Below, one piece after another: positions 9,158 through 56,075 of a DNA stretch of 64,000 nt. Each line of letters begins with the position of its first letter. Within the stretch, counting starts at the first letter, position 1. Location: contig NW_027590175.1 in assembly GCF_964213995.1 (NCBI RefSeq), positions 744,001 to 808,000 of the forward strand, given 5' to 3'. The DNA is from Mustelus asterias (taxonomy: Eukaryota). The position numbers were made by a program, and so were the translations under genes. The notes under the pieces were generated by a model, which saw only the letters and a list, made by a program, of their open reading frames with translations, did no database searches and was not told the DNA's origin.

Positions 9158-9465
9158 TTATTTGATTTCATTTGACTTATTATTATCGCATATATTACTA
9201 CACAGTGCAAATTATTGTTTCTTGCGCACTATGCAGTCAGAGCATAACGTATATAGGGAAGGAAGGGAGAGAGTGAATAATGTAATTTTGCACTCATAGC
9301 TGGGGTGTAGAGAAAGCTGAACTTAATGCGACGTAGGTCCATTCAAACGCCTTATTGCAGCAGGAAATACATTGTTTTTGAGTCGGTTTATACGTGCCCT
9401 CAGACTTTTGTATCTTGATCCCGATGGAAAAAGGTGACAGAGTATGTCTGGAGTGCGTGGCGTTT
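9158..9465 (-). mobile_element. Rex1/Babar-like LINE 3' end inserted in the pseudo-VH intron
   Basis: Reverse complement matches the + strand element at 62083-62470; same insertion present at 26190-26510. Confidence 0.6.
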
Positions 9466-9496
9466 TATTTTCATCGGCTTTTAGATATTTTTACAA

Positions 9497-10012
9497 GTGT
9501 GGAATCGGAGGTTGTGCTGAGTCAGCGAGAGGCAGAAACTGGGCGTCCCTGAAACTCTTTGAGACTGACTGCAAAGCCAACGCGTCCAATATTAGCAGTA
9601 TCTGGATGTTCCGGGTCCGACAGGTCCCTGAACAGTGTTTACAGTGTCTTCTTCAGTACGATAGTCTCGGGTCAACCTACAATTCCTCCCCCCCAGGGAT
9701 TCAGAATCAATTTACTCCGCCCAAATGCACTTCAAACAACGGAAAGAGAAAATGCTGGAAAATCTCAGCAAGTCTGACAGCACCTGTAAGGAGAGGGAAG
9801 AACTGACTTTTCGATTCCAGATTACCCTTTGTCAAAACATTCGAAATGTCAGCTATTTTCTCTCCTCACAGATATTGCCAGGCCTGCTGAGATTTCCAGC
9901 ATTTTCTCTTTTGGTTTCAATTGCAGAATCCGCAGTAATTTGCTTTTATACTTCAAACGACATCTTCTCTTTGGAAATAACTGAAAACCGAAGATTTCTA
10001 TCTTTACCCTGT
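9497..10012 (+). pseudogene. IGHV: IgM-type VH pseudogene 1 (no leader, mutated acceptor, TGA at 9550-9552, frameshift, insertion, no RSS)
   Basis: EVVLSQREAETGRP*NSLRL...WMFRVRQVPEQ...GIQNQFT..KCTSNN / IFSLEI aligns with the functional VH at 37137. Confidence 0.92.
9741..9949. mobile_element. Palindromic Penelope-like short element inserted in pseudo-VH1 FR3
   Basis: Fold-back arms aatgctggaaaatctcagca.../...tgctgagatttccagcatt; 12-bp TSD acttcaaac(a/g)ac at 9729-9740 and 9950-9961. Confidence 0.8.
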
Positions 10013-14054: not shown

Positions 14055-16362
14055 CCATAAGACCATAAGACCATAAGACATAGGAGCGGAAGTAAGGCCA
14101 TTCGGCCCATCGAGTCCACTCCACCATTCAATCATGGTTGATTTCAACTCCATTTACCCGCTCTCTCCCCATAGCCCTTAATTCCTCGAGAAATCAAGAA
14201 TTTATCAATTTCTGTCTTGAAGACGCTCAACGTCTCGGCCTCCACAGCCCTCTGTGGCAATGAATTCCACAGACCCACCACTCTCTGGCTGAAGAAATTT
14301 CTCCTCATCTCTGTTCTAAAGTGACTCCCTTTTATTCTAAGGCTGTGCCCCCGCGTCCTAGTCTCCCCTGTTAATGGAAACAACTTCCCTACGTCCATCC
14401 TATCTAAGCCGTTCATTATCTTGTAAGTTTCTATCAGATCTCCCCTCAACCTCCTAAACTCCAATGAATATAATCCCACGATCCTCAGACGTTCATCGTA
14501 TGTCAGGCCTACCATTCCTGGGATCATCCGTGTGAATCTCCGCTGGACCCGCTCCAGTGCCAGTATGTCCTTCCTGAGGTGTGGGGCCCAAAATTGCTCA
14601 CAGTACTCCAAATGGGGCCTAACCAGTGCTTTATAAAGCCTCAGAAGTACATCCCTGCTTTTGTATTCCAAGCCTCTTGAGATAAATGACAACATTACAT
14701 TTGCTTTCTTAATTACGGACTCAACCTGCAAGTTTACCTTTAGAGAATCCTGGACTAGGACTCCCAAGTCCCTTTGCACTTTAGCATTATGAATTTTGTC
14801 ACCGTTTAGAAAATAGTCCATGCCTCTATTCTTTTTTCCAAAGTGTACGACCTCGCACTTACCCACGTTGAATTTCATCAGCCACTTCTTGGACCACTCT
14901 CCTAAACTGTCTAAATCTTTCTGCAGCCTCCCCACCTCCTCAATACTACCTGCCCCTCCACCTATCTTTGTATCATCGGCAAACCTGGCCAGAATGCTCC
15001 CAGTCCCGTCATCTAGATCGTTAATATATAAAGAGAACAGCTGTGGCCCCAACACTGAACCCTGCGGGACACCACTTGTCACCGGTTGCCATTCTGAGAA
15101 AGAACCTTTTATCCCAACTCTCTGCCTTCTGTCTGACAGCCAATCGTCAATCCATGTTAGTACCTTGCCTCGAATACCATGGGCCCTTATTTTACTCAGC
15201 AGTCTCCCGTGAGGCACCTTGTCAAAGGCCTTTTGGAAGTCAAGATAGATAACATCCATTGGCTCTCCTTGGTCTAACCTATTTGTTATCTCTTCAAAGA
15301 ACTCTAACAGGTTTGTCAGGCACGACCTCCCCTTACTAAATCCATGCTGACTTGTCTTAATCCGACCCTGCACTTCCAAGAATTTAGAAATCTCATCCTT
15401 AACGATGGATTCTAGAATTTTGCCAACAACTGAGGTTAGGCTAATTGGCCTATAATTTTCCATCTTTTTTCTTGTTCCCTTCTTGAACAGTGGGGTTACA
15501 ACAGCGATTTTCCAATCCTCTGGGACTTTCCCTGACTCCAGTGACTTTTGAAAGATCATAACTAACGCCTCCACTATTTCTTCAGCTATCTCCTTTAGAA
15601 CTCTAGGATGTAGCCCATCTGGGCCCGGAGATTTATCAATTTTCAGACCTTTTAGTTTCTCTAGCACTTTCTCCTTTGTGATGGCAACCATATTCAACTC
15701 TGCCCCCTGACTTTCCTGAATTGTTGGGATATTACTCATGTCTTCTACTGTGAAGACTGACGCAAAGTACGTATTAAGTTCCTCAGCTATTTCCTTGTCT
15801 CCCATCACTAGATTACCAGCGTCATTTTGGAGCGGCCCAATGTCTACTTTTGCCTCCCGTTTGTTTTTAATGTATTTAAAGAAACTTTTACTATCATTCC
15901 TAATGTTACTGGCTAGCCTACCTTCATATTTGATCCTCTCCTTCCTTATTTCTCTCTTTGTTATCCTCTGTTTGTTTTTATAGCCTTCCCAATCTTCTGA
16001 CTTCCCACTACTCTTTGCCACATTATAGGCTCTCACTTTTGCCTTGATGCATTCCCTGACTTCCTTTGTCAGCCATGGCTGCCTAATCCCCCCTCTGATA
16101 ACCTTTCTTTTGTTTGGGATGAACCTCTGCACTGTGTCCTCAATTACTCCCAGAAACTCCTGCCATTGCTGTTCTACTGTCTTTCCCATTAGGCTCTGCT
16201 TCCAGTCGATTTTTGTCAGTTCCTCCCTCATGCGCCTGTAATTACCTTTATTTAACTGTAGAACCTTCACATCTGATTCTGCCTTCCTTCTTTCAAATTG
16301 CAGACTGAATTCTACCATATTATGATCACTGCTTCCTAAGTGTTCCCTTACTTTAAGATCTT
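14055..16362 (-). mobile_element. Young 5'-truncated CR1 LINE with uninterrupted 724-codon RT ORF (14144-16318)
   Basis: [35 protein letters not shown]; (accataag)n tail at 14055-14080; empty site at ~29688. Confidence 0.95.
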
Positions 16363-25067: not shown

Positions 25068-26527
25068 GGGTTAAGGAGCTGTTGGGGAAATATGAGGTGT
25101 AACATTGTATCATATGAGGAGTTTCTTTTTTCAATTCATTCATGGACGGCACGGTGGCATAGTTGTTAGCACTGCTGCCGCACAACGCAAGGGACCCGGA
25201 TTCAATTCCCGGTTTGGATCTGCGTGGAGTCTCTGTCTGTGTGGAGTCTGCACGTCCTCCAATTGTCAGCCTATTTACTCACATGGTCCGAAGATGTGAC
25301 GCTTAGGTTGATTGGCGATGATAAATTCTTCCATGATGCCAAGGGAATTAGCAGCGAATATACGTGGGGTGATGGGGATAGGGCCTGAGTGGGAATGTTG
25401 TCGGTGCAGGCCTAATGGGCCAAATGGCCTCCTTCTGCTCTGTAGGGATTCTATGGACATGGATGCCGCTGGATGGTCAGCATTTATTGCCCACTCCTTG
25501 TCCGAGGGCAGTTGAGAGCCAACCACATTGCTGTGGCTCTGGAATGACATGTAGGCCAGCCAGGCAAGGACTGCAGATTTCCTTCTCGAAAGGACATTAC
25601 TGAAGACAATCGGCAACGATATCATGGTCATAAGTAGATTCCTAAGTCCAGACGTTTTCCTTGAATTTAAATTCCACCATCTGCCGTGGCGGGATTCGAA
25701 GCCAGATCCTGAGAACATTAGTTGAGTTTGTGGATTAATTGTATAGCGATAATAACACGAAGCCATTGCTTCCCTTTTTGCTTATATCCAGTCCCAAATT
25801 ACACGGATAGCTATCCACACCTGAAATACAATCATCCCAGCATGTAGTTCCATAAATCGTTAATAATTCCTTTAATGAATTATTATTTTGCTGCAATGTG
25901 TTAGAGACACAGAATTATTGCAAATCTGACTGACGTCTTTACCCTGATAAGATAATGTCACCTTGTTTATGTCTATTCCCTTGTGAAGAGGTGCAGAAAT
26001 GAAGGTATTTAATTTACAATGAAATTGTTTCTTTTATATAACAGATAATCAAATGCAATTTCACCCCTTGGACTTGCAGAGACATTACAATGGATCTCAA
26101 TCTTACTGCCTCAGTATTAATCTGTTTCTGGAATGTTCCAGTGTCAGCAATCAATTCACCGGGAGTAATCCTCGGTATTTTTGATAAATTTTATTTGATT
26201 TCATTTGATTTATTATTATCACACATATTACTACACAGTGAAAGTTATTGTTTCGTGTTCACTATATAGACAGAGCATACTGTACATAGGGAAGAAAGGG
26301 AGAGAGTATAGAATGTAATGTTACAGTCATAGCTAGGGTGTAGAAAAAGATCAACTTAATGCGAGGTTGGTCCATTCAAAAGTCTGAATGCAGCAGGAAA
26401 GAAACTGTTTTTGACTCGGTTTATAAATGTCCTCAAGCTTTTGCATCATCGCGATGGAAAAAGGCGAGAGAGTATGTCCGGGGTGCGTGGCATTGTTTTT
26501 ACATGTTTTTCTTTCATATTTGTAAAA

Positions 26528-26684
26528 GTGTCTAATCAGACATTGTGTTGGCTCAGCCAGAGGCAGAAACCGGGCGTCCCTGAGGCTCCCTGAGACTGAC
26601 CTGGAAAGCCATTGCGTGGCTTTACCCATGGCAGCAACTGGGTGTCTGGGTCAGACAGGTCCCTGGACAGTGTTTGTTGTATCT
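26528..26684 (+). pseudogene. IGHV: IgM-type VH pseudogene 2 (FR1-FR2 only; TGA at 26581-26583)
   Basis: [23 protein letters not shown]...VRQVPGQ; shares its lesions with pseudo-VH1. Confidence 0.9.
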
Positions 26685-26685
26685 T

Positions 26686-27360
26686 AGGAATGTAAGAACT
26701 AGGAGCTGAAGTAGGCCAACTGGCACCTCGATCCTGTTCCACCATTGAATAAGATCATGGCCTACCTTTTTGTGGACTCGGCTCCACTTATCAGCCTGCA
26801 CACCATAACCCTTAATTACTTTACTGTTCAGAAATGTATTTTTCCTTGCCTTAAAAACATTCAATGAGGTAGCCTCCACTGCTTCACTGGGCAGGGAATT
26901 CCACAGATTCACAATCCTTTGTGTGAATAATTTCCTCCTCAACTGAGTGCTAAATCTTCTCCTCCTTATTTTGAGGCTATGCCCCCTAGTTCTGGTTTCA
27001 CCTGCCAGTGGAAACAACTTCCCCACTTCTATCTTATTAATTCCCTTCCTAATCTTATATGCTTCTATAAGATTCTCCCGACACTCTTCTGAATTCCAAT
27101 GACTATATGTTCAAAATCTCTGAATTTCTTCATTTCCAGTTATTACATCCCCCTTGTTATCCTCTAAAGGACCAATGTTTACTTTAGCCACTCTTTCTTT
27201 TTGCTTTATATATTTGTAGAAACATTTGATATCTGTTTTTATATTCTAAGCTAGTTTACTTTCATCATCCATCTTACTTTTCCTTATAGCTTTCTTCGTG
27301 GCTTTCTGTTGACCTTTAAAGATTTCCAAATGCTCTATTTTCCCACTAATCTTTGCCACT
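26686..27360 (-). mobile_element. CR1 LINE fragment with internal deletion
   Basis: GETRTRGHSLKI...VNLWNSLP; flanked by ttgtatctt repeats. Confidence 0.88.
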
Positions 27361-36966: not shown

Positions 36967-37012
36967 ATGAGGTCGGCGATTTCTCTCAGTTTGTTGTTGA
37001 GTTTCTTATCCG
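36967..37012 (+). CDS. IGHV: IgM VH leader exon (MRSAISLSLLLSFLS-G)
   Basis: ATG, hydrophobic signal peptide, phase-1 donor G|gtaagt. Confidence 0.97.
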
Positions 37013-37136: not shown

Positions 37137-37441
37137 GTGTCCAGTCGGAGGTTGTGTTGACTCAGCCAGAGGCAGAGACCGGGCGTCCCGGAGGCTCCCT
37201 GACACTGACCTGTAAAACCAGCGGCTTCGATCTTGGCAGCTACTCCATGCACTGGATCCGACAGGTTCCCGGACAGGGGCTGGAGTGGTTGCTTTACTAC
37301 TACTCTTCATCTAGCAACAACTACGTCCCAGCAATTAAGGATCGATTTAGTGCGTCCAAAGACACTTCAAGCAACATCTTCTCTTTGGAAATGACGAGGC
37401 TGAAGACCGAAGACACCGCCATCTATTACTGTGCAAGAGAC
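37137..37441 (+). CDS. IGHV: IgM VH exon, open frame
   Basis: Acceptor ttacag; [30 protein letters not shown]...[12 protein letters not shown]...[11 protein letters not shown]. Confidence 0.98.
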
Positions 37442-37480
37442 CACAGCGAGAGGAACCAGGGTTGGACCCGGACAAGAACA
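37442..37480 (+). other. VH 3' RSS, 23-bp spacer
   Basis: CACAGCG-23-ACAAGAACA. Confidence 0.95.
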
Positions 37481-37851
37481 GCTCGAGAGGGAATTCAACA
37501 ACTTCCATCATAACCTGAAGGTCAGTGCTTGTTTTAAATGTAGTATTAACGACAGTGACCAGAACCAAAACACAAACTGCTTCTGACAAACCTAACTTAG
37601 TGAAAATTAAACATTAAACCAAGAAAACACACAGACATAACGGGCTGAGCTTTTCACTCTGTTTATATTTAGTGTTAACAGTTTCTGCAATTACACACCT
37701 GGATATAACTCTCGCTTTATTATTTCTGAGACTTGGAGGAGGTGTTTCTAGATTGTGTTTTGTAAACTGCTGCATAAATTGTAAATTACATCGAAATAAT
37801 GGTCTATTTGAAGTACATATTGAGCGGCAGTACTGAACAGAGAGTGAGTGC

Positions 37852-37934
37852 AGTTTTTGTGCGAGTGTCTGTCACTGTGATACAGCAGTGGGGGGTCACA
37901 GTGCTGAGCACAGCGACATCCTCATACAAAAACC
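37852..37934 (+). other. D1 segment (37880-37896, ATACAGCAGTGGGGGGT) flanked by 12-RSS and 22-RSS
   Basis: AGTTTTTGT-12-CACTGTG | D1 | CACAGTG-22-ACAAAAACC, the typical shark 12/22 D1; all three frames open. Confidence 0.97.
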
Positions 37935-38234
37935 TCATGGAAAGAGATTGCTCAAATTGGTAATCAGTATCACGGCAGGATTTTCAAAGTAAACGCGGCT
38001 TCAGTGAAATAATGTGTGGAAGTAATATTAGTTTGTGAAAAGGTATAAAAATCTTCCCATAAAATCTATATTTACCGATATGCTAAATCTACACAGAGAG
38101 TTTAAAAGCATTCCGATCCCCTTTATAAATACAATGACCAGGACAAGCTGAAATATCTCACTCATTCGCTCGTGGATGAGGCAGAATCAGATTTTTGAGA
38201 CAGCAGTGAAATTAAACAGTTAGCAGTCGGGCAC

Positions 38235-38312
38235 AGTATTTGTCATGCTGTGTCTCACTGTGATAACTGGGGGGCTACTGGGGACAAGGGACCATGGTGA
38301 CGGTGACTGCAG
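38235..38312 (+). other. IGHJ: 12-RSS followed by pre-joined D2-JH (38263-38312)
   Basis: AGTATTTGT-12-CACTGTG, then ATAACTGGGGGG-CTACTGGGGACAAGGGACCATGGTGACGGTGACTGCAG|gtaag (YWGQGTMVTVTA); no intervening RSSs. Confidence 0.93.
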
Positions 38313-38529
38313 GTAAGAACCATGCCTTTAAATAGTCAGTGTTTTATTTGAGTTTTTGTTTTATACTTTTTCTCGATTTTATTAATTCATTCGTTCAATG
38401 TAATGTGGTTTGGTGGATTCTGTGCTGAAAATCTTTTCAATGTTTCATGTGATCCTGCTTAAAATGGGGGTTATAGAATTCTACTGTTAATTGACAAAAG
38501 ATGATACTGAGTGATTCAGTCTCTTGTTG

Positions 38530-40520: not shown

Positions 40521-43169
40521 ATCATGAATTACAATTCTTACTGCGTCACTGTATCTCTGTTAGGGACATTACACTACCCTGGATCGGTTATATCTGATGT
40601 GCACATTTTCAGAAAAAAAAATATTTTTTGCCTAGTTTTCGAGATTTGAGATAGACAGGGAGAAATAGTTAAAATTCGAAGGGAATTTTGAAATGAATAT
40701 CAGTTTAATTTAAAAGAAGTTATTGATTTTTGTTGTTGTAGTTGGAAAATTGATCAATTAGAATCTCACAGTTTAAATAAATTTGACAGAGTGAACACAG
40801 TTTTCTGACAGGTGGAATTCGCTAACACTAAACAATTGTTCATATAATGGTGTTTGAATTGTCGTAAGGTGTCAACAGAAACTGGCTCGAGATTTACAAT
40901 TTAAGACTTGAAATTCAATTAATTAATTTTTTATAATATTATCATATTTTTATATGAGTAATATTTGCGCTGCATTTAATAATAACATCCTGTCTCCCAT
41001 TACTGCTGAACATAGAATAGAATTATTGGATGAATAAATGACAGAATGGAAGAATTGATTCTATTTGAGCATTGTGTTTAATTAGTATTAAATATTATAC
41101 TGAAGAGAAAGTCTCGACTTATTTTGTGCATCATGTTTCAGTGTTGCAGAGGATTTGAATCAATTGTCCTCATTGTGTTTTTCATTGTTTAATTCAGAAC
41201 TTCTTAATTTAAACAATATGTTCAGTAATTAAATTATATGGATGGTCCAAATTATTAAATCTCGGAAGCAGCTTCATTGACCTCAAACTGCCAGGCCGTT
41301 ACAGTATATACAAAGTCAGAAACATGCATTCTTAACACGTTTGCAGGTTATAATAAGGCATTTGGAGTAAAAGTGGAAATGAAAAAACATGACAATGTTA
41401 TTCGATTGAAGCAAATGAATTACAGATGTCTGAATCTTTCCATTCAGTAATTTGAAGTTTATCGTTTAATATTTAATTGGAACCTAATTACTTCACAATG
41501 TTCGAGGCAGGGAAAGTTTTGAATGATTGAAAACTGATTTTATTAGGGAGTACAAATCAGCTAACAGGAAAAGTAACCGGCAATTAACAAAACAAAATAT
41601 AATATTGGTGCTAATTAATTCAAAACAAAATACCTTGAATAATGCACGGGCGTGCAAAGTATCATCCGTTTCAGAGAATGTTTAATTGTATCGAAAATGA
41701 ATTCAGAAACAAAACCTTTCTTTTATCAGCTATGCTTAGCTCGATAAGGTGTTTTACCTCGAATATTTTGTTGATTACATTTAATTAAGAAATTAGATCG
41801 AATCAGGTAATGATTTTCAATGTAAATGTTTCTTGGTTTATTTAATCCTTACTGTGTCACTGTATCTCTGTCGGGGACATTGAACTGTCCTGAATCTGTT
41901 ATTTTTGATTCCTAATTTTCAGCGAAATTACATTTTTACATAGTTTTCGAGAAGTGAGACAGGCAGAGAGACATAATTAAAAATCGACAGGAGTTTTGAA
42001 ATGAATATCAGTTTTATTTAAAAGAGGTTATTGATTTTCTGTTGTAAATTGATCATTGATCAATTAGAATCAAACAGTTTGAATTAAATTGACAGATTGA
42101 TCATACCTACCTGCTGGGAAATCGATTGTTGCACCGTTTGTGTCTGTTCTGTTTCTGCGCGCGTGGTCACTGTGTTGGGACCAGGAATCTGCCTGACTGG
42201 TTGTAAAACTTCTGGTTCCTTCTGCTGTATTTCAGGGAGTGAAATTTGATTTATTTCTTCAATAAACTTGTATCTGTGAGAAATGTGACAGTTTGACTTG
42301 ATGTTTGTCTCGGCGTCTCAGAAATGAGATCCCTAAAGCATATTGTGACCATCAGAGAGAGCAGAAACGTCAGATTGTAGAGGGAGATTTGGATGATTTT
42401 TAACCAGTGATGTACCGGCCTTGGGAATGTTCGATGAGCAAATGCAAAGTGAGATTGTGCTCCGTAGTAAAGCAGTCCATGACCTGTTTGGTATGACAGT
42501 TGAAGGGTCAAATTCATTTGCATCTTATTTTTAATCTTCTAAACCCATTTTAGAGTCATTTGCTCGGCCAGAAGTTTTAATCATCAATAATTGTTCCTTG
42601 AGAAAGTGTTGATATGAAGCATCCTTGAATAACTGCAATCCATATGCTGCAGGCATCCGCCGTGCTGTTAGGTGGAAGTTCCAGGATTTTGACCCAGAAG
42701 GAACTGAGGTATTGTTTCAAGTCAGGATGGTGTGTGTCTTGGAGGGGAGCTTGCAGGTGGTAGTCTTCATATGTGGCTGCTGCCCTTATCCTGTTAGGAT
42801 ATAAAGGCAACGGGTTTGGACAGTGTTTACTATGGAGCCTTGGTGAGTTGCTGCAGTGCATCTTGTATATAACACACACTGCTGTCACTGCTTGTTAGTG
42901 ATGGAGAGAGAGAATAGGGTGAATGAGGGGGCGGATAATCTTGTGGGTGGCTTTGCCCTGGATTGTGTCAAATTTCTTGAGTTTTTACAGGTTTCCCTCA
43001 TTGAGTAGGGTGAATTATTCAATTGCGACTGATTGCGAAAGATTTAAATGTTTTTCCAACCCTTGGCCCGCGCTCCGTATTGTGCTCACTTGTCACTCCC
43101 ACTTACTGTGTGAATGGGTGAGTATGTGTGGAGTGAGTGTGTTTTCCAGACTGAATCAGCCAAATAGAG

Positions 43170-47995: not shown

Positions 47996-48968
47996 GATCG
48001 ACGGGCGGAGTGAGGATGTGCAAAATAGAGCTAGCACCACAACCAGATCATCTGTAATCTCAGTGAATAATGGAGGAGACGTCAGGGCCCGAATGGCCAA
48101 CTCTTGCTATTAATGTATGACCCTTCAATTAGTCAATGTTGCAATTATTTGAATTTGTAATCACATTTAGAGTTTCCTGGTCATTCAGTAAGTATTCATT
48201 CCGAAGGTAGTTTTGAAGCAAAGTCACTAATCTTCATTTTGTGGAGTGAGAGGCTGTGAGTTGGAGAGAGGAAGGGGCATCAGTTCGTTTGAACACAGGC
48301 AATAGCCAAAACTACAATGTGGATATGCCGACGCTAGGTTGGGGTGGGCTCAGTAAGGAGTCTGACAACACCAGGTTGAACGCCAACAGGATTATTTGGA
48401 ATCGTGAGCTTTTGGAGCTCTTTCATCAGGCGAGTGGCTGATATGAATGAAGAGACAACTTCTTCATCACAAAGTCCTGTTGTTTGAGAAATAGGTAGTG
48501 CCTGAAGTAATGGAGAAACTCTTTACACTTCTCTGTTAATCCAATGAATGGTATGTCATTACAATGACATCAAAATGTTTTTGTCTTTCCAACCTGATAG
48601 AGGTCGAGACAGTGATGTGAGTTTCTACAAAGATGGCGATTCTCAAATGATAGGAGTAACAGAAGCTGAAAGGTGTATGTAGGTCTTAATCGGGAAATAT
48701 TAAGTTAAGTTCATAATTCTAGACAAATCGTGATGTAGAAACATAGAAAATAGAAGCAGGAGTAGGCCATTCGGCCCTTTGACCCTGCTCTACCATTCAC
48801 TTTGATCACGGCTCATCAATGTCCTGACCCCGCCGACTACCCATATCCATTGATCTCTTTAGCCGCAAGAGCTATACCTAATATAGAAACATACTTGTAT
48901 AAATATGTTTGATTAATTAATAAACGCAAGTAATAGTCTAACTTGTTCAATCGACTATTCCTTCCCAG

Positions 48969-49268
48969 CGACACCGTCTCCGCCCACTCTCTACAGCCTC
49001 GTCTCTTCCTGTCAGCAACACAACTCCGCTGGCTCCATCACCTACGGCTGTTTGGCGATGGACTACTCTCCAGATGTCTCCAAACTGACCTGGAAGAAAA
49101 ATGGGCAGCTGATCGCCACTGGATTTAAGACTTATCCATCAGTGAGAAACGCGAAGGGAACCTATACCCTAAGCAGCCAGTTAACCATCACCCAGTCAGT
49201 GGGAGAGTGCAGCAAAATCGACTGTGAGGTTCGACACAGCGACTCAGTCAAGAGCATTGGAATGCAAT
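48969..49268 (+). CDS. IGHM: IgM Cmu1 exon
   Basis: cccag|(A)[16 protein letters not shown]...[10 protein letters not shown]...WKKNG...CEVRH...|gtaag; phase 1/1, 300 nt. Confidence 0.97.
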
Positions 49269-49409
49269 GTAAGTGTTGTGGAACTTGGGCAAGACAGGAA
49301 CGCTGTGATTGAACTCTATAAGGCCTTAGTTATAACTGATCTGTAGCATTCTGAAAAATTGAATTATGCAAAATCCAGGTAAGTGTCTACTGACTGAAAA
49401 GTTGCTCAG

Positions 49410-50240: not shown

Positions 50241-50552
50241 GCCCAATCGTTATCACCCCAACCGTTATCCTCACCGTGAGTTCCAGTGAAGAAATCACAA
50301 GCAGAAAATTTGCAACCATCGTCTGTTCAATCATCGATTTCCAGCCAAAGTCAATGACGGTGAAGTGGCTGAAGAATGGACAACGCATGGATTCAGGAAT
50401 TATCACCTCTCCCGCCTGTGAAGTGAACGGGAACTTCTCGGCCAGCAGTCGGCTGACAGTCTCCGCTCAGGAATGGTTCAGCAAAGCGGTCTATACCTGC
50501 CAGGTCACTCACCAAGGATTCACTCAGAGTCAGAACATCAGCGGATCTCTGG
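50241..50552 (+). CDS. IGHM: IgM Cmu2 exon
   Basis: gaag|(C)[11 protein letters not shown]...[12 protein letters not shown]...WLKNG...YTCQVTH...|gtaag. Confidence 0.97.
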
Positions 50553-51469
50553 GTAAGAGACTCAAACCGAGAAAAAAATTATTCCGCTGTTAATGGAAAT
50601 TAGGGATCTATTAAAGTTAATACAAAGCATAGAACAACTTCTAAGTTATTGTCATGTAGTTTGCTGCATTGGGACAGTGCCCCATTCAGAACTTCATCAC
50701 AACATCAATTTTTGTTATTCCTTCATGAGATGTGCATTTGTGGCCCATCCCGGATACCACTTAATTGTCAACCACGTTGCTGTGGATCTGGAGTCACATG
50801 CATGCCAGGCCAGATAAAGACAACAGATTTACTTTTCTGAACGGCATTCGTGAACCAGGTGGGCTTTTGCAACAATGGCTTCATGATGATCATTTGACTT
50901 TTAATCATAGATTTTTACTAAATTCAAATTTCACCATTTGCAGTGGTGAGATTCGAATCTGTGTCCCCAGAGTCGTGCCCTGGGTTACAAGACCATTGGT
51001 AACACCACCATGCCACTGCCTCCCCTTGAAATAGTGTTCCCTTCCATTTTGAAGTAACAGAGTAAGCGAGCTGGTCTTGATGTCAGCTTTTTCCTGAGAC
51101 AGCTGGTAAGATTTGGAGAGACAGTCGGTGTCGGACTGTTTCACAGGTCACAGCATAGGGGTAAAATATTGGGAAGTGTATCCACCCTACTTATAAACTA
51201 ACTGCCAGTACTTGGTTCCTGAGTTCAGGAATGCTATATTTGTTGGGGAATACTGCAATGTTGATTCATGAGAATGATACCGCTGCTAAAATACTTGAAC
51301 AAAAAGAGAATAATTTCACAGAGCAGGCTGGTTTTCCATCCTCCAGAGAGGTTGAAAGGTGATAGTTAGAGGTTGATATATCGAAGGCAACTTCGTCTCC
51401 TTCAGGCTGAAGACTGCTGTCCTGCTTCTGAAGAGGGAACTAGGGTTGATTTTCATTTTTCATTCACAG

Positions 51470-51778
51470 ATCCTCCCCAGTGCCCTGATACCACAGTGAC
51501 GATACAGCCGCCACCAATCGAACAGGTCTTACTGGAGGCGACCGTGACCTTAACCTGCATCATTTCTAATGCTCCCTATGGAGTCAATGTGTCCTGGATC
51601 CGAGACAGGAAGTATTTGAAATCAGAGATTGCCGAAAAGCCTGGAGCGGATCCTGACAGCGTGGTCAGCAACTTAAACATCTCGACACAAGCCTGGCTGA
51701 GTGCGGCTGTGTTTGACTGCGTGGTGAGCCATCAGGATCTGCCGACTCCTTTAAGAAAATCCATCCACAAGGAAACAG
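51470..51778 (+). CDS. IGHM: IgM Cmu3 exon
   Basis: acag|(D)PPQCPD...[17 protein letters not shown]...VSW...[13 protein letters not shown]...|gtgag. Confidence 0.97.
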
Positions 51779-52281
51779 GTGAGCTGAGAGATTGAAGCAA
51801 TAAATGCGTCACTGTGTCTATTTCCAGTGTCAGTGTACTGGTCAATATTCCAGTATTCAGTGCATTAATGGTCTCCCCTGAGTGGAAACTCCACTAACTA
51901 AAGACTGGGGGTTTTAGATATTTTTACGGGGAAATTTGATGTGTTGATGAATGAAAAGTGAACTGAAGGCGATGTTATTGGGTTTAGATCGAATAACGAG
52001 GGAGGAGCCTGATGTGGAGCATAAAAACCAGAAAACCAAAAATAAAGCCGATCAGTTGGGCCGAATAGCCTGATTCTGTGCTGTAAAATTTCTGAAACTT
52101 CCCAGTCCAGCCCCCTGAGTTATTTGAGAAAATAATTGTGTTCACCTCTGCTCCAAACTGGGAGTCAAAAATGGAAACATTTAAAATCGAAAGCGAAGCA
52201 CATTTTTCTGATATCTCGCCAGTGGTTACATTCTCTCCGGAATTCTCCAGTTTATTGACATTTATTGTACATTTTCTGCAG

Positions 52282-52673
52282 ATCCAAATCCGCGGGAACC
52301 GTTCGTCTCTGTCCTCCTGCCCTCGGCAGAAGAAGTCTCCGCTCAGAGATTCGTCTCCCTCAGCTGCTTAGTGAGACGTTTCTCCCCTCGAGAGATCTTC
52401 GTCAAGTGGACCGTCAACGACAAGCCGGTGAATCCTGGGAACTATAAGAACACCGAGGTGGTCGCGGAGAGCGGGAATAGCTCCTTCTTCATGTACAGCC
52501 TGTTATCCATTGCAGCAGAGGAATGGTCCAGCGGCGCTTCTTACTCCTGTGTGGTGGGACATGAAGCCATCCCCTTGAAGATCATCAACAGAACAGTTGA
52601 CAAATCCAGCGGTAAACCCAGTTTTGTGAACATTTCCCTTGCACTGATGGACACCGTTAATTCATGTCAATGA
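52282..52673 (+). CDS. IGHM: IgM Cmu4 exon with secretory tailpiece
   Basis: gcag|(D)PNPREP...SLSCLV...[11 protein letters not shown]...[24 protein letters not shown]; internal membrane-form donor G|GTAAA after 52611; N-glycosylation site and penultimate Cys. Confidence 0.98.
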
Positions 52674-55260: not shown

Positions 55261-55807
55261 GGCAAATGATGAATGTAAAATTTAAAGGTGATTTTTTAAT
55301 GCACACATCCACAGATTAACTATCCCAATGTACAATGAACAGCCAAACACATTGAGAAGCTGAATTAAGCTCATGATCTATTTCCACCATAAAGAAGCAC
55401 AGATCGGAAATTACATCCCAACACTTAAACAACAACATTTACAGTTTATAGATCAGTAACCATCTGTGAAAACAATCATTGATCAGTGAACGTTCCTCGA
55501 TATCAGTCATAACATTCTTCAATCAGGGATAGTGGCAAATAGTTCAAAAATGAACTGATACTTAATTAAACATCTTCAGTGTTTTCTGACATGGACTGTC
55601 CAAAGAATGTCAATAAAGATCAGGTGTGAAAATAGTTACGGAGATCGGTTACTGAATGTCCTGAATTTAACAGTAGATATACATTGAAAATTAAATTCGA
55701 GATTAAATGAACAGCTTAAAAAGGAGAACGGGGAACATAAAAGTAACAATAAGATCACCTGGATAAATAAAGTAATCTAATTTCAGTTCCTGGTCTCCGT
55801 CCCCTAG

Positions 55808-55935
55808 ACTCCACCGACCGCATCTGGATTGACGACAATGAGGATGATAACAGCAACATCTGGACAACCGCTTCTACATTCATCGTGCTGTTCTTCCTGA
55901 GCATTTTCTACAGCACTGCGGTCACTCTGGTGAAG
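55808..55935 (+). CDS. IGHM: IgM TM1 exon
   Basis: cctag|(D)STDRIWIDDNEDDNSNIWTTASTFIVLFFLSIFYSTAVTLVK|gtgag; CART motif. Confidence 0.96.
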
Positions 55936-56075
55936 GTGAGATGATTCAATTCACTCACATTTCAAACTGGCAGAATGGATTTGAAAAAATTCTCAATGTT
56001 TCGCTGATTAAAAACTCTAACATTAATGTCCCGCATCATCAACATCTGCTTCATTATTGTATCTTTCTTTTACAG

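Follow-up and report, generated by a model that had tools for sequence, protein, structure and literature searches.

Heavy-chain clusters that are partly or fully joined in the germline are common in sharks, according to the parts of the literature available to us (PMC5192425, PMC4279169). The joined forms named for elasmobranch immunoglobulin heavy-chain (IgH) clusters are VD, VDD and VDJ in the horn shark, VD-J, VD-DJ and VDJ in reviews, and IgM1gj in the nurse shark. Data on light chains, as excerpted, indicate that germline joins form with little TdT activity and that somatic joins carry stretches of N bases (PMC2193156). D reading frames that bear stop codons are described, again in excerpt, as common and still used (PMC13033528). 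In the open literature searched, where the older horn shark and skate work is represented by abstract or reference, a heritable V-D-DJ arrangement or a heritable join of D2 to J only is not named; this gap is no claim of absence.

An IgM minilocus with D2 joined to J

The window, which is the whole stretch of 64,000 nt from Mustelus asterias that was analysed, holds one complete houndshark-like IgM heavy-chain minilocus in the order V-D1-D2J-Cmu, with every exon open. On the forward strand, the leader exon of the IgM VH gene (36967..37012) ends at a GT donor and encodes S at residue 12, where 8 of the 12 listed shark leaders have T. The single VH exon (37139..37441) matches the Pfam V-set domain (E=1.2e-19) and is followed by a 3' recombination signal with a 23-nt spacer (37442..37480). 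D1 (37880-37896), which is stop-free in all frames, lies between a 12-spacer and a 22-spacer signal (37852..37934). Four C1-set exons are located downstream, Cmu1 (48968..49270), Cmu2 (50243..50551), Cmu3 (51466..51777) and Cmu4 with the secretory tail (52278..52673), followed by the transmembrane exon (55807..55944), all on the forward strand. A separate D2 with 12/12 signals and a separate J with a 23-type signal were not found in this copy, which is a joined derivative.

The 5' signal of D2 (38235..38262, reverse strand) consists of a heptamer at 38256-38262, a 12-nt spacer and a nonamer at 38235-38243 with two mismatches. After the signal ends at 38262 there is an A at 38263, TAA at 38264-38266 and a run of six G at 38269-38274. 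The J frame reads *LGGYWGQGTMVTVTA and runs to the GT donor past 38313, and following the signal, the junction and the J through to this donor confirmed that the TAA stands in the J frame, as the sequence-only reading had stated; the frame starting at 38263 is open. Neither the 3' signal of D2 nor the signal of J is present between D2 and J, while the outer signals are retained, and the signal scan of the window recovered no further intact D or J signal pair. A heptamer, a 24-nt spacer and a nonamer with two mismatches in the J-C intron (42135-42174), pointing downstream, were rejected as the mark of another J because none convincing lies behind them. Upstream of the intact cluster lie two VH remnants (9460-9990 and 26480-26700) that are degraded by stops and frameshifts; their upstream flanks are alike, and the scan found no signal there. 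A 738-aa open frame on the reverse strand (14144-16360) resembles a LINE reverse transcriptase by eye, and many shorter fragments of the same sort are present.

The named protein nearest to the window chain is P0018, an IgM predicted from the Mustelus asterias genome (XP_078062221.1), to which it is identical at 60 of 63 residues in V and at 113 of 114 residues in the Cmu1 match. The junction peptide of P0018 indicates the same D1, D2 and J types, but P0018 is fully joined as VDDJ and in frame, and reads the same D2 in its open N-frame. P0018 comes from a 102-kb contig, and its in-frame VDDJ could likewise be germline or somatic. Cmu1 of the window departs from both P0018 and P0066 by an E-to-V change at 49199. 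In Cmu4, codon 52377-52379 encodes R within a conserved C1-set motif past the first cysteine, a position that is G in 15/15 shark homologs; the change is likely damaging and could impair the chain, or it may be a sequence error. Another observation concerns P0038, a hypothetical protein by annotation on a 742-nt contig from a bacterial assembly, which resembles the constant region of shark IgM and is probably host contamination.

Germline D2 and J segments in related copies

We aligned the contigs from four of the 23 listed runs, three from samples of organism A and one of organism B, to positions 37380-38420; organism A might be a species other than that of the window, and a single copy could be excluded in the one run that is deep enough. 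The 23 listed runs include no RNA run and have no bearing on expression. In 4/4 runs, a contig tracks the window into D2 and then diverges into a recombination signal (heptamer, 12-nt spacer, nonamer). All four runs also contain J in unjoined form, in two types that match the window from 38272 and from 38275. The unjoined D2 was identified by a match of at least 85% to the window, and the split was placed from the letters that do not match. Because an unjoined D2 with its 3' signal is present in all four runs, the TAA end is, as read from these alignments, germline D2 in one of its three frames. Over 38060-38263, which includes the 5' signal of D2, the window shows 0 differences from the main family of organism A in 204 nt.

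The simplest division of the junction would be 9 nt of D2 (38263..38271) and a J that lacks its first 7 nt (38272..38313, followed by the GT donor), the J being of the type that begins with MGYW in both P0018 and P0058. In this case no N bases would be required, and three G from D2 plus three G from J would give the run of six. If the J was of the second type, it would lack 10 nt and three G might be N bases. Relative to the sister copies, the D2-J spacer and both inner signals are missing and the outer signals are kept, such that the signals are excised and the breakpoints fall at trimmed coding ends, as is characteristic of germline-joined clusters. An N-free junction also fits a join made by RAG in a germ cell.

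We give an even chance to the explanation that RAG joined D2 to JH, either in a germ cell or in the early embryo, and that the join was then inherited in one copy of a multi-copy minilocus of the houndshark type. The D2-J spacer would have been lost in this event together with the two inner signals, trimming would have removed about 3 nt from D2 and about 7 nt from J without any addition of N bases, and the frame would have landed by chance on the D2 frame that opens with TAA. The frame would not have been subject to selection, since a D-J join without V yields no receptor. A germline deletion that did not involve RAG, at short G-rich sequences that match between D2 and J, could mimic such a coding joint, and G-rich ends do flank the breakpoint on both sides; yet the distance from either breakpoint to the signal that was removed is no more than about 10 nt, as in the RAG coding joints described in the available text of PMC2193156, and we consider a deletion of this kind very improbable.

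The sequence-only reading also noted that a run of 5 or 7 G would remove the stop from the J frame, and computation on the sequence agreed that either length opens it. The join could thus be real and the frame wrong, or the copy could be an assembly mosaic of near-identical paralogs, of which there are about 10-12 as estimated from depth. The G runs at the ends of both D segments vary in length among the sequencing runs, and the join is spanned by none of the 32 contig pieces listed of 237, so that the count of six G is that of the assembled letters. However, the three G of D2 and three G of J would predict exactly six, the private differences of the window copy are mainly substitutions rather than indels, and all exons are open. 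We regard an erroneous frame or a mosaic as improbable.

Other joined forms were observed at about single-copy depth in organism A (X1, X4), namely a V-to-J join (37443-38277) in one of the three runs and a D1-to-J join (37891-38276) in two of the three; the sequences suggest that individuals differ in which clusters are joined in the germline. The D1-to-J joint includes a second type of D2. A group of contigs over 37679-37814 (X1; depth 87.6) is present in one sample only and appears to carry three letters of the window, pointing to copy-number variation of IgM subfamilies among animals. Since joined copies are patchy among samples, the absence of the window copy from the animals of organism A is weak evidence. 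Metagenome contigs scanned with the J core gave 0 matches, and the cluster look-up returned no additional Mustelus paralogs.

Private changes and the origin of the join

A close rival, which we rate somewhat below inheritance, is that the window contains the somatic V-D1-D2J allele of one B-cell clone, incompletely rearranged, transcribed, hypermutated as a passenger and caught in the assembly. The cell would in that case have ceased rearranging, the stop would never have counted, and nothing would be hard-wired. V-D-DJ is known as an intermediate of somatic rearrangement, and the accessible part of PMC2435157 describes partly rearranged alleles that are hypermutated across V and spacer DNA; it also describes partial rearrangements as infrequent in B cells, which we count for inheritance. 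Somatic haplotypes are known to disturb long-read assemblies, on evidence from cell lines (PMC12146632, in excerpt).

We compared the window copy with the related contigs at 40 listed sites out of 145 that differ, and the figures given here cover these listed sites. Of these 40, 28 were judged shared or polymorphic and not counted as private. At 7 of the listed sites, the letter of the window occurs in no contig of any covering run, which is robust for the deepest run only, and under a looser rule 12 of the listed sites are private, clustered between V and J. An initial set of about 20 private sites with three tandem pairs was reduced to these 12 (7 strict) with one pair, as the X1 group seems to share letters with the window; by depth arithmetic it appears to match at 37709, 37720 and 37742 and perhaps at 37815-16. 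All tests on the private changes are post hoc, mutually non-independent and based on the 40 listed of the 145 sites.

The branch leading to the window carries 12 private changes, as compared to 1-4 on the side of organism A (P=0.003-0.08). Their clustering is significant at P=0.003, or at P=0.02 if they are counted as 11 events, and their spectrum is rich in transversions (5:7 versus 21:7, P=0.07). Four of the five private G:C changes fall in AID motifs (P=0.04), but so do 11 of 26 control rows. The run of six G in D1 is longer by 3 nt than in the main family of organism A and by 2 nt than in organism B, and the three extra G were taken to favour a somatic allele, as were the length, clustering, transversion excess and AID bias of the private branch. 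Together with the private residues in V and Cmu1, the 7 sites at which the letters of the window are missing from the runs, the lack of a listed contig that spans the join and the fact that the literature consulted names no heritable V-D-DJ, these features of the branch count against inheritance. Private residues were identified at 3 of 63 positions in V and 1 of 101 in Cmu1, as compared to none in P0018; a Ser in framework 3 was dropped as a private residue because P0018 has the same Ser.

Tandem bases account for 2 of the 12 private changes, versus 38-51% in shark hypermutation as measured on TCR alpha in the part of PMC5931798 available (P=0.02-0.11). This low share counts for inheritance over hypermutation, and two apparent tandem pairs are weakened by the letters that the X1 group seems to share. 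The C exons show 2 departures at 284 conserved sites, where 7.8 would be expected if they drifted unselected at the V-J rate (P=0.016), in line with a somatic allele, but clean C exons equally fit a functional germline copy. The difference between V (2/59) and C (2/284) in conserved sites departing gives P=0.14 in a Fisher test, and the non-coding comparison is confined to 37380-38420. The Cmu4 change at the invariant residue lies 15 kb from V, outside the range of hypermutation, and was counted for inheritance, as was the junction that needs no N bases. Assemblers usually correct substitutions in single molecules, which also counts against a somatic allele.

If the join was inherited, the window copy may be beginning to decay, as the Cmu4 G-to-R change would indicate. 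It is also conceivable, albeit improbable, that the join is inherited and that the V-J region bears a true hypermutation footprint, in which case both RAG and AID would have acted in the germ line. This would be the sole surprising outcome, a heritable, pre-mutated and frame-locked V-D1-D2J allele.

Effect of the stop and comparison with described clusters

Enumeration of trims and fills bore out that the D2J end of the joined copy has to be trimmed by 2 nt or more for a chain to be productive. Stop-free fills were obtained in 0/16 cases with 0 nt lost, 0/1 with 1 nt, 3/4 with 2 nt, 14/16 with 3 nt and 1/1 with 4 nt. Under the inherited join, B cells could still join D1 or V to D2J, and since only losses of at least 2 nt would be productive, output would be lowered and not blocked. 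The predicted drop in output thus exists but is partial: 21-65% of the in-frame joins pass, as compared to 74-88% for an unjoined cluster, if trimming is assumed to be geometric with a mean of 1-5 nt. The literature search returned no distribution of D trimming in sharks, and the junction data of PMC2435157 could alter the size of the filter.

The constraint on CDR3 is real in terms of trimming, but to call it hard-wired is an overstatement, as this needs an inherited join and the haplotype of the window is unseen in the four runs. The filter is also of little weight. As the TAA belongs to the germline D2, sister clusters with the same D2 meet the same stop in a third of their joins. Of the three frames that a D-J join may fix at random, one begins with TAA, and the stop therefore matches the chance expectation. 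The further claim that the join was not selected in an expressing B cell holds to the extent that it was not chosen for its frame; the stop is silent on the cell of origin, because selection cannot act on a D-J join that lacks V, whatever its frame.

The frame lock could in principle be a selected device that forces trimming, shapes the length of CDR3 or limits the output of the cluster, and with the assumed trimming the constraint could reduce output by roughly one quarter to two thirds. We consider such a device very unlikely, given that chance alone would yield this frame in a third of joins, that the listed contigs of the four runs contain no second copy with the same join, and that the copy carries the probably damaging change in Cmu4. 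Whichever cell type made the join, the stop is very probably an accident rather than a device.

If the join is inherited, the D2-J-only form is added to the known germline joins, and the copy offers a natural test of trimming, since its joins are marked and the productive ones can be set against the non-productive ones. If it is somatic, a shark cluster called germline-joined on the basis of one assembly may in fact be the allele of a lymphocyte.

The window copy resembles the germline-joined IgH clusters in being a minilocus with inner signals cleanly gone, trimmed coding ends, a possibly N-free junction and intact C exons. It differs from them in that only D2 and J are joined, V and D1 are split and the frame is closed, and its heritability is putative. 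The somatic V-D-DJ (1R) intermediate of nurse shark IgM, as described in the accessible text of PMC2435157, has an identical configuration and likewise private changes in V and spacer DNA; unlike this intermediate, the sequence of the window is assembled, its share of tandem changes is low and there is no clear N region. As with the DH frames that bear stops, of the RF3 type in the mouse (PMC13033528, in excerpt), the D frame is usable only once the stop has been trimmed off, with the difference that in the window the D-J join, if inherited, would have set the frame of the entire cluster in advance. In the way it works, the window copy is comparable either to shark clusters joined in the germline or to the V-D-DJ stage of somatic rearrangement, in each case with a D frame that bears a stop, and all of these are known phenomena.
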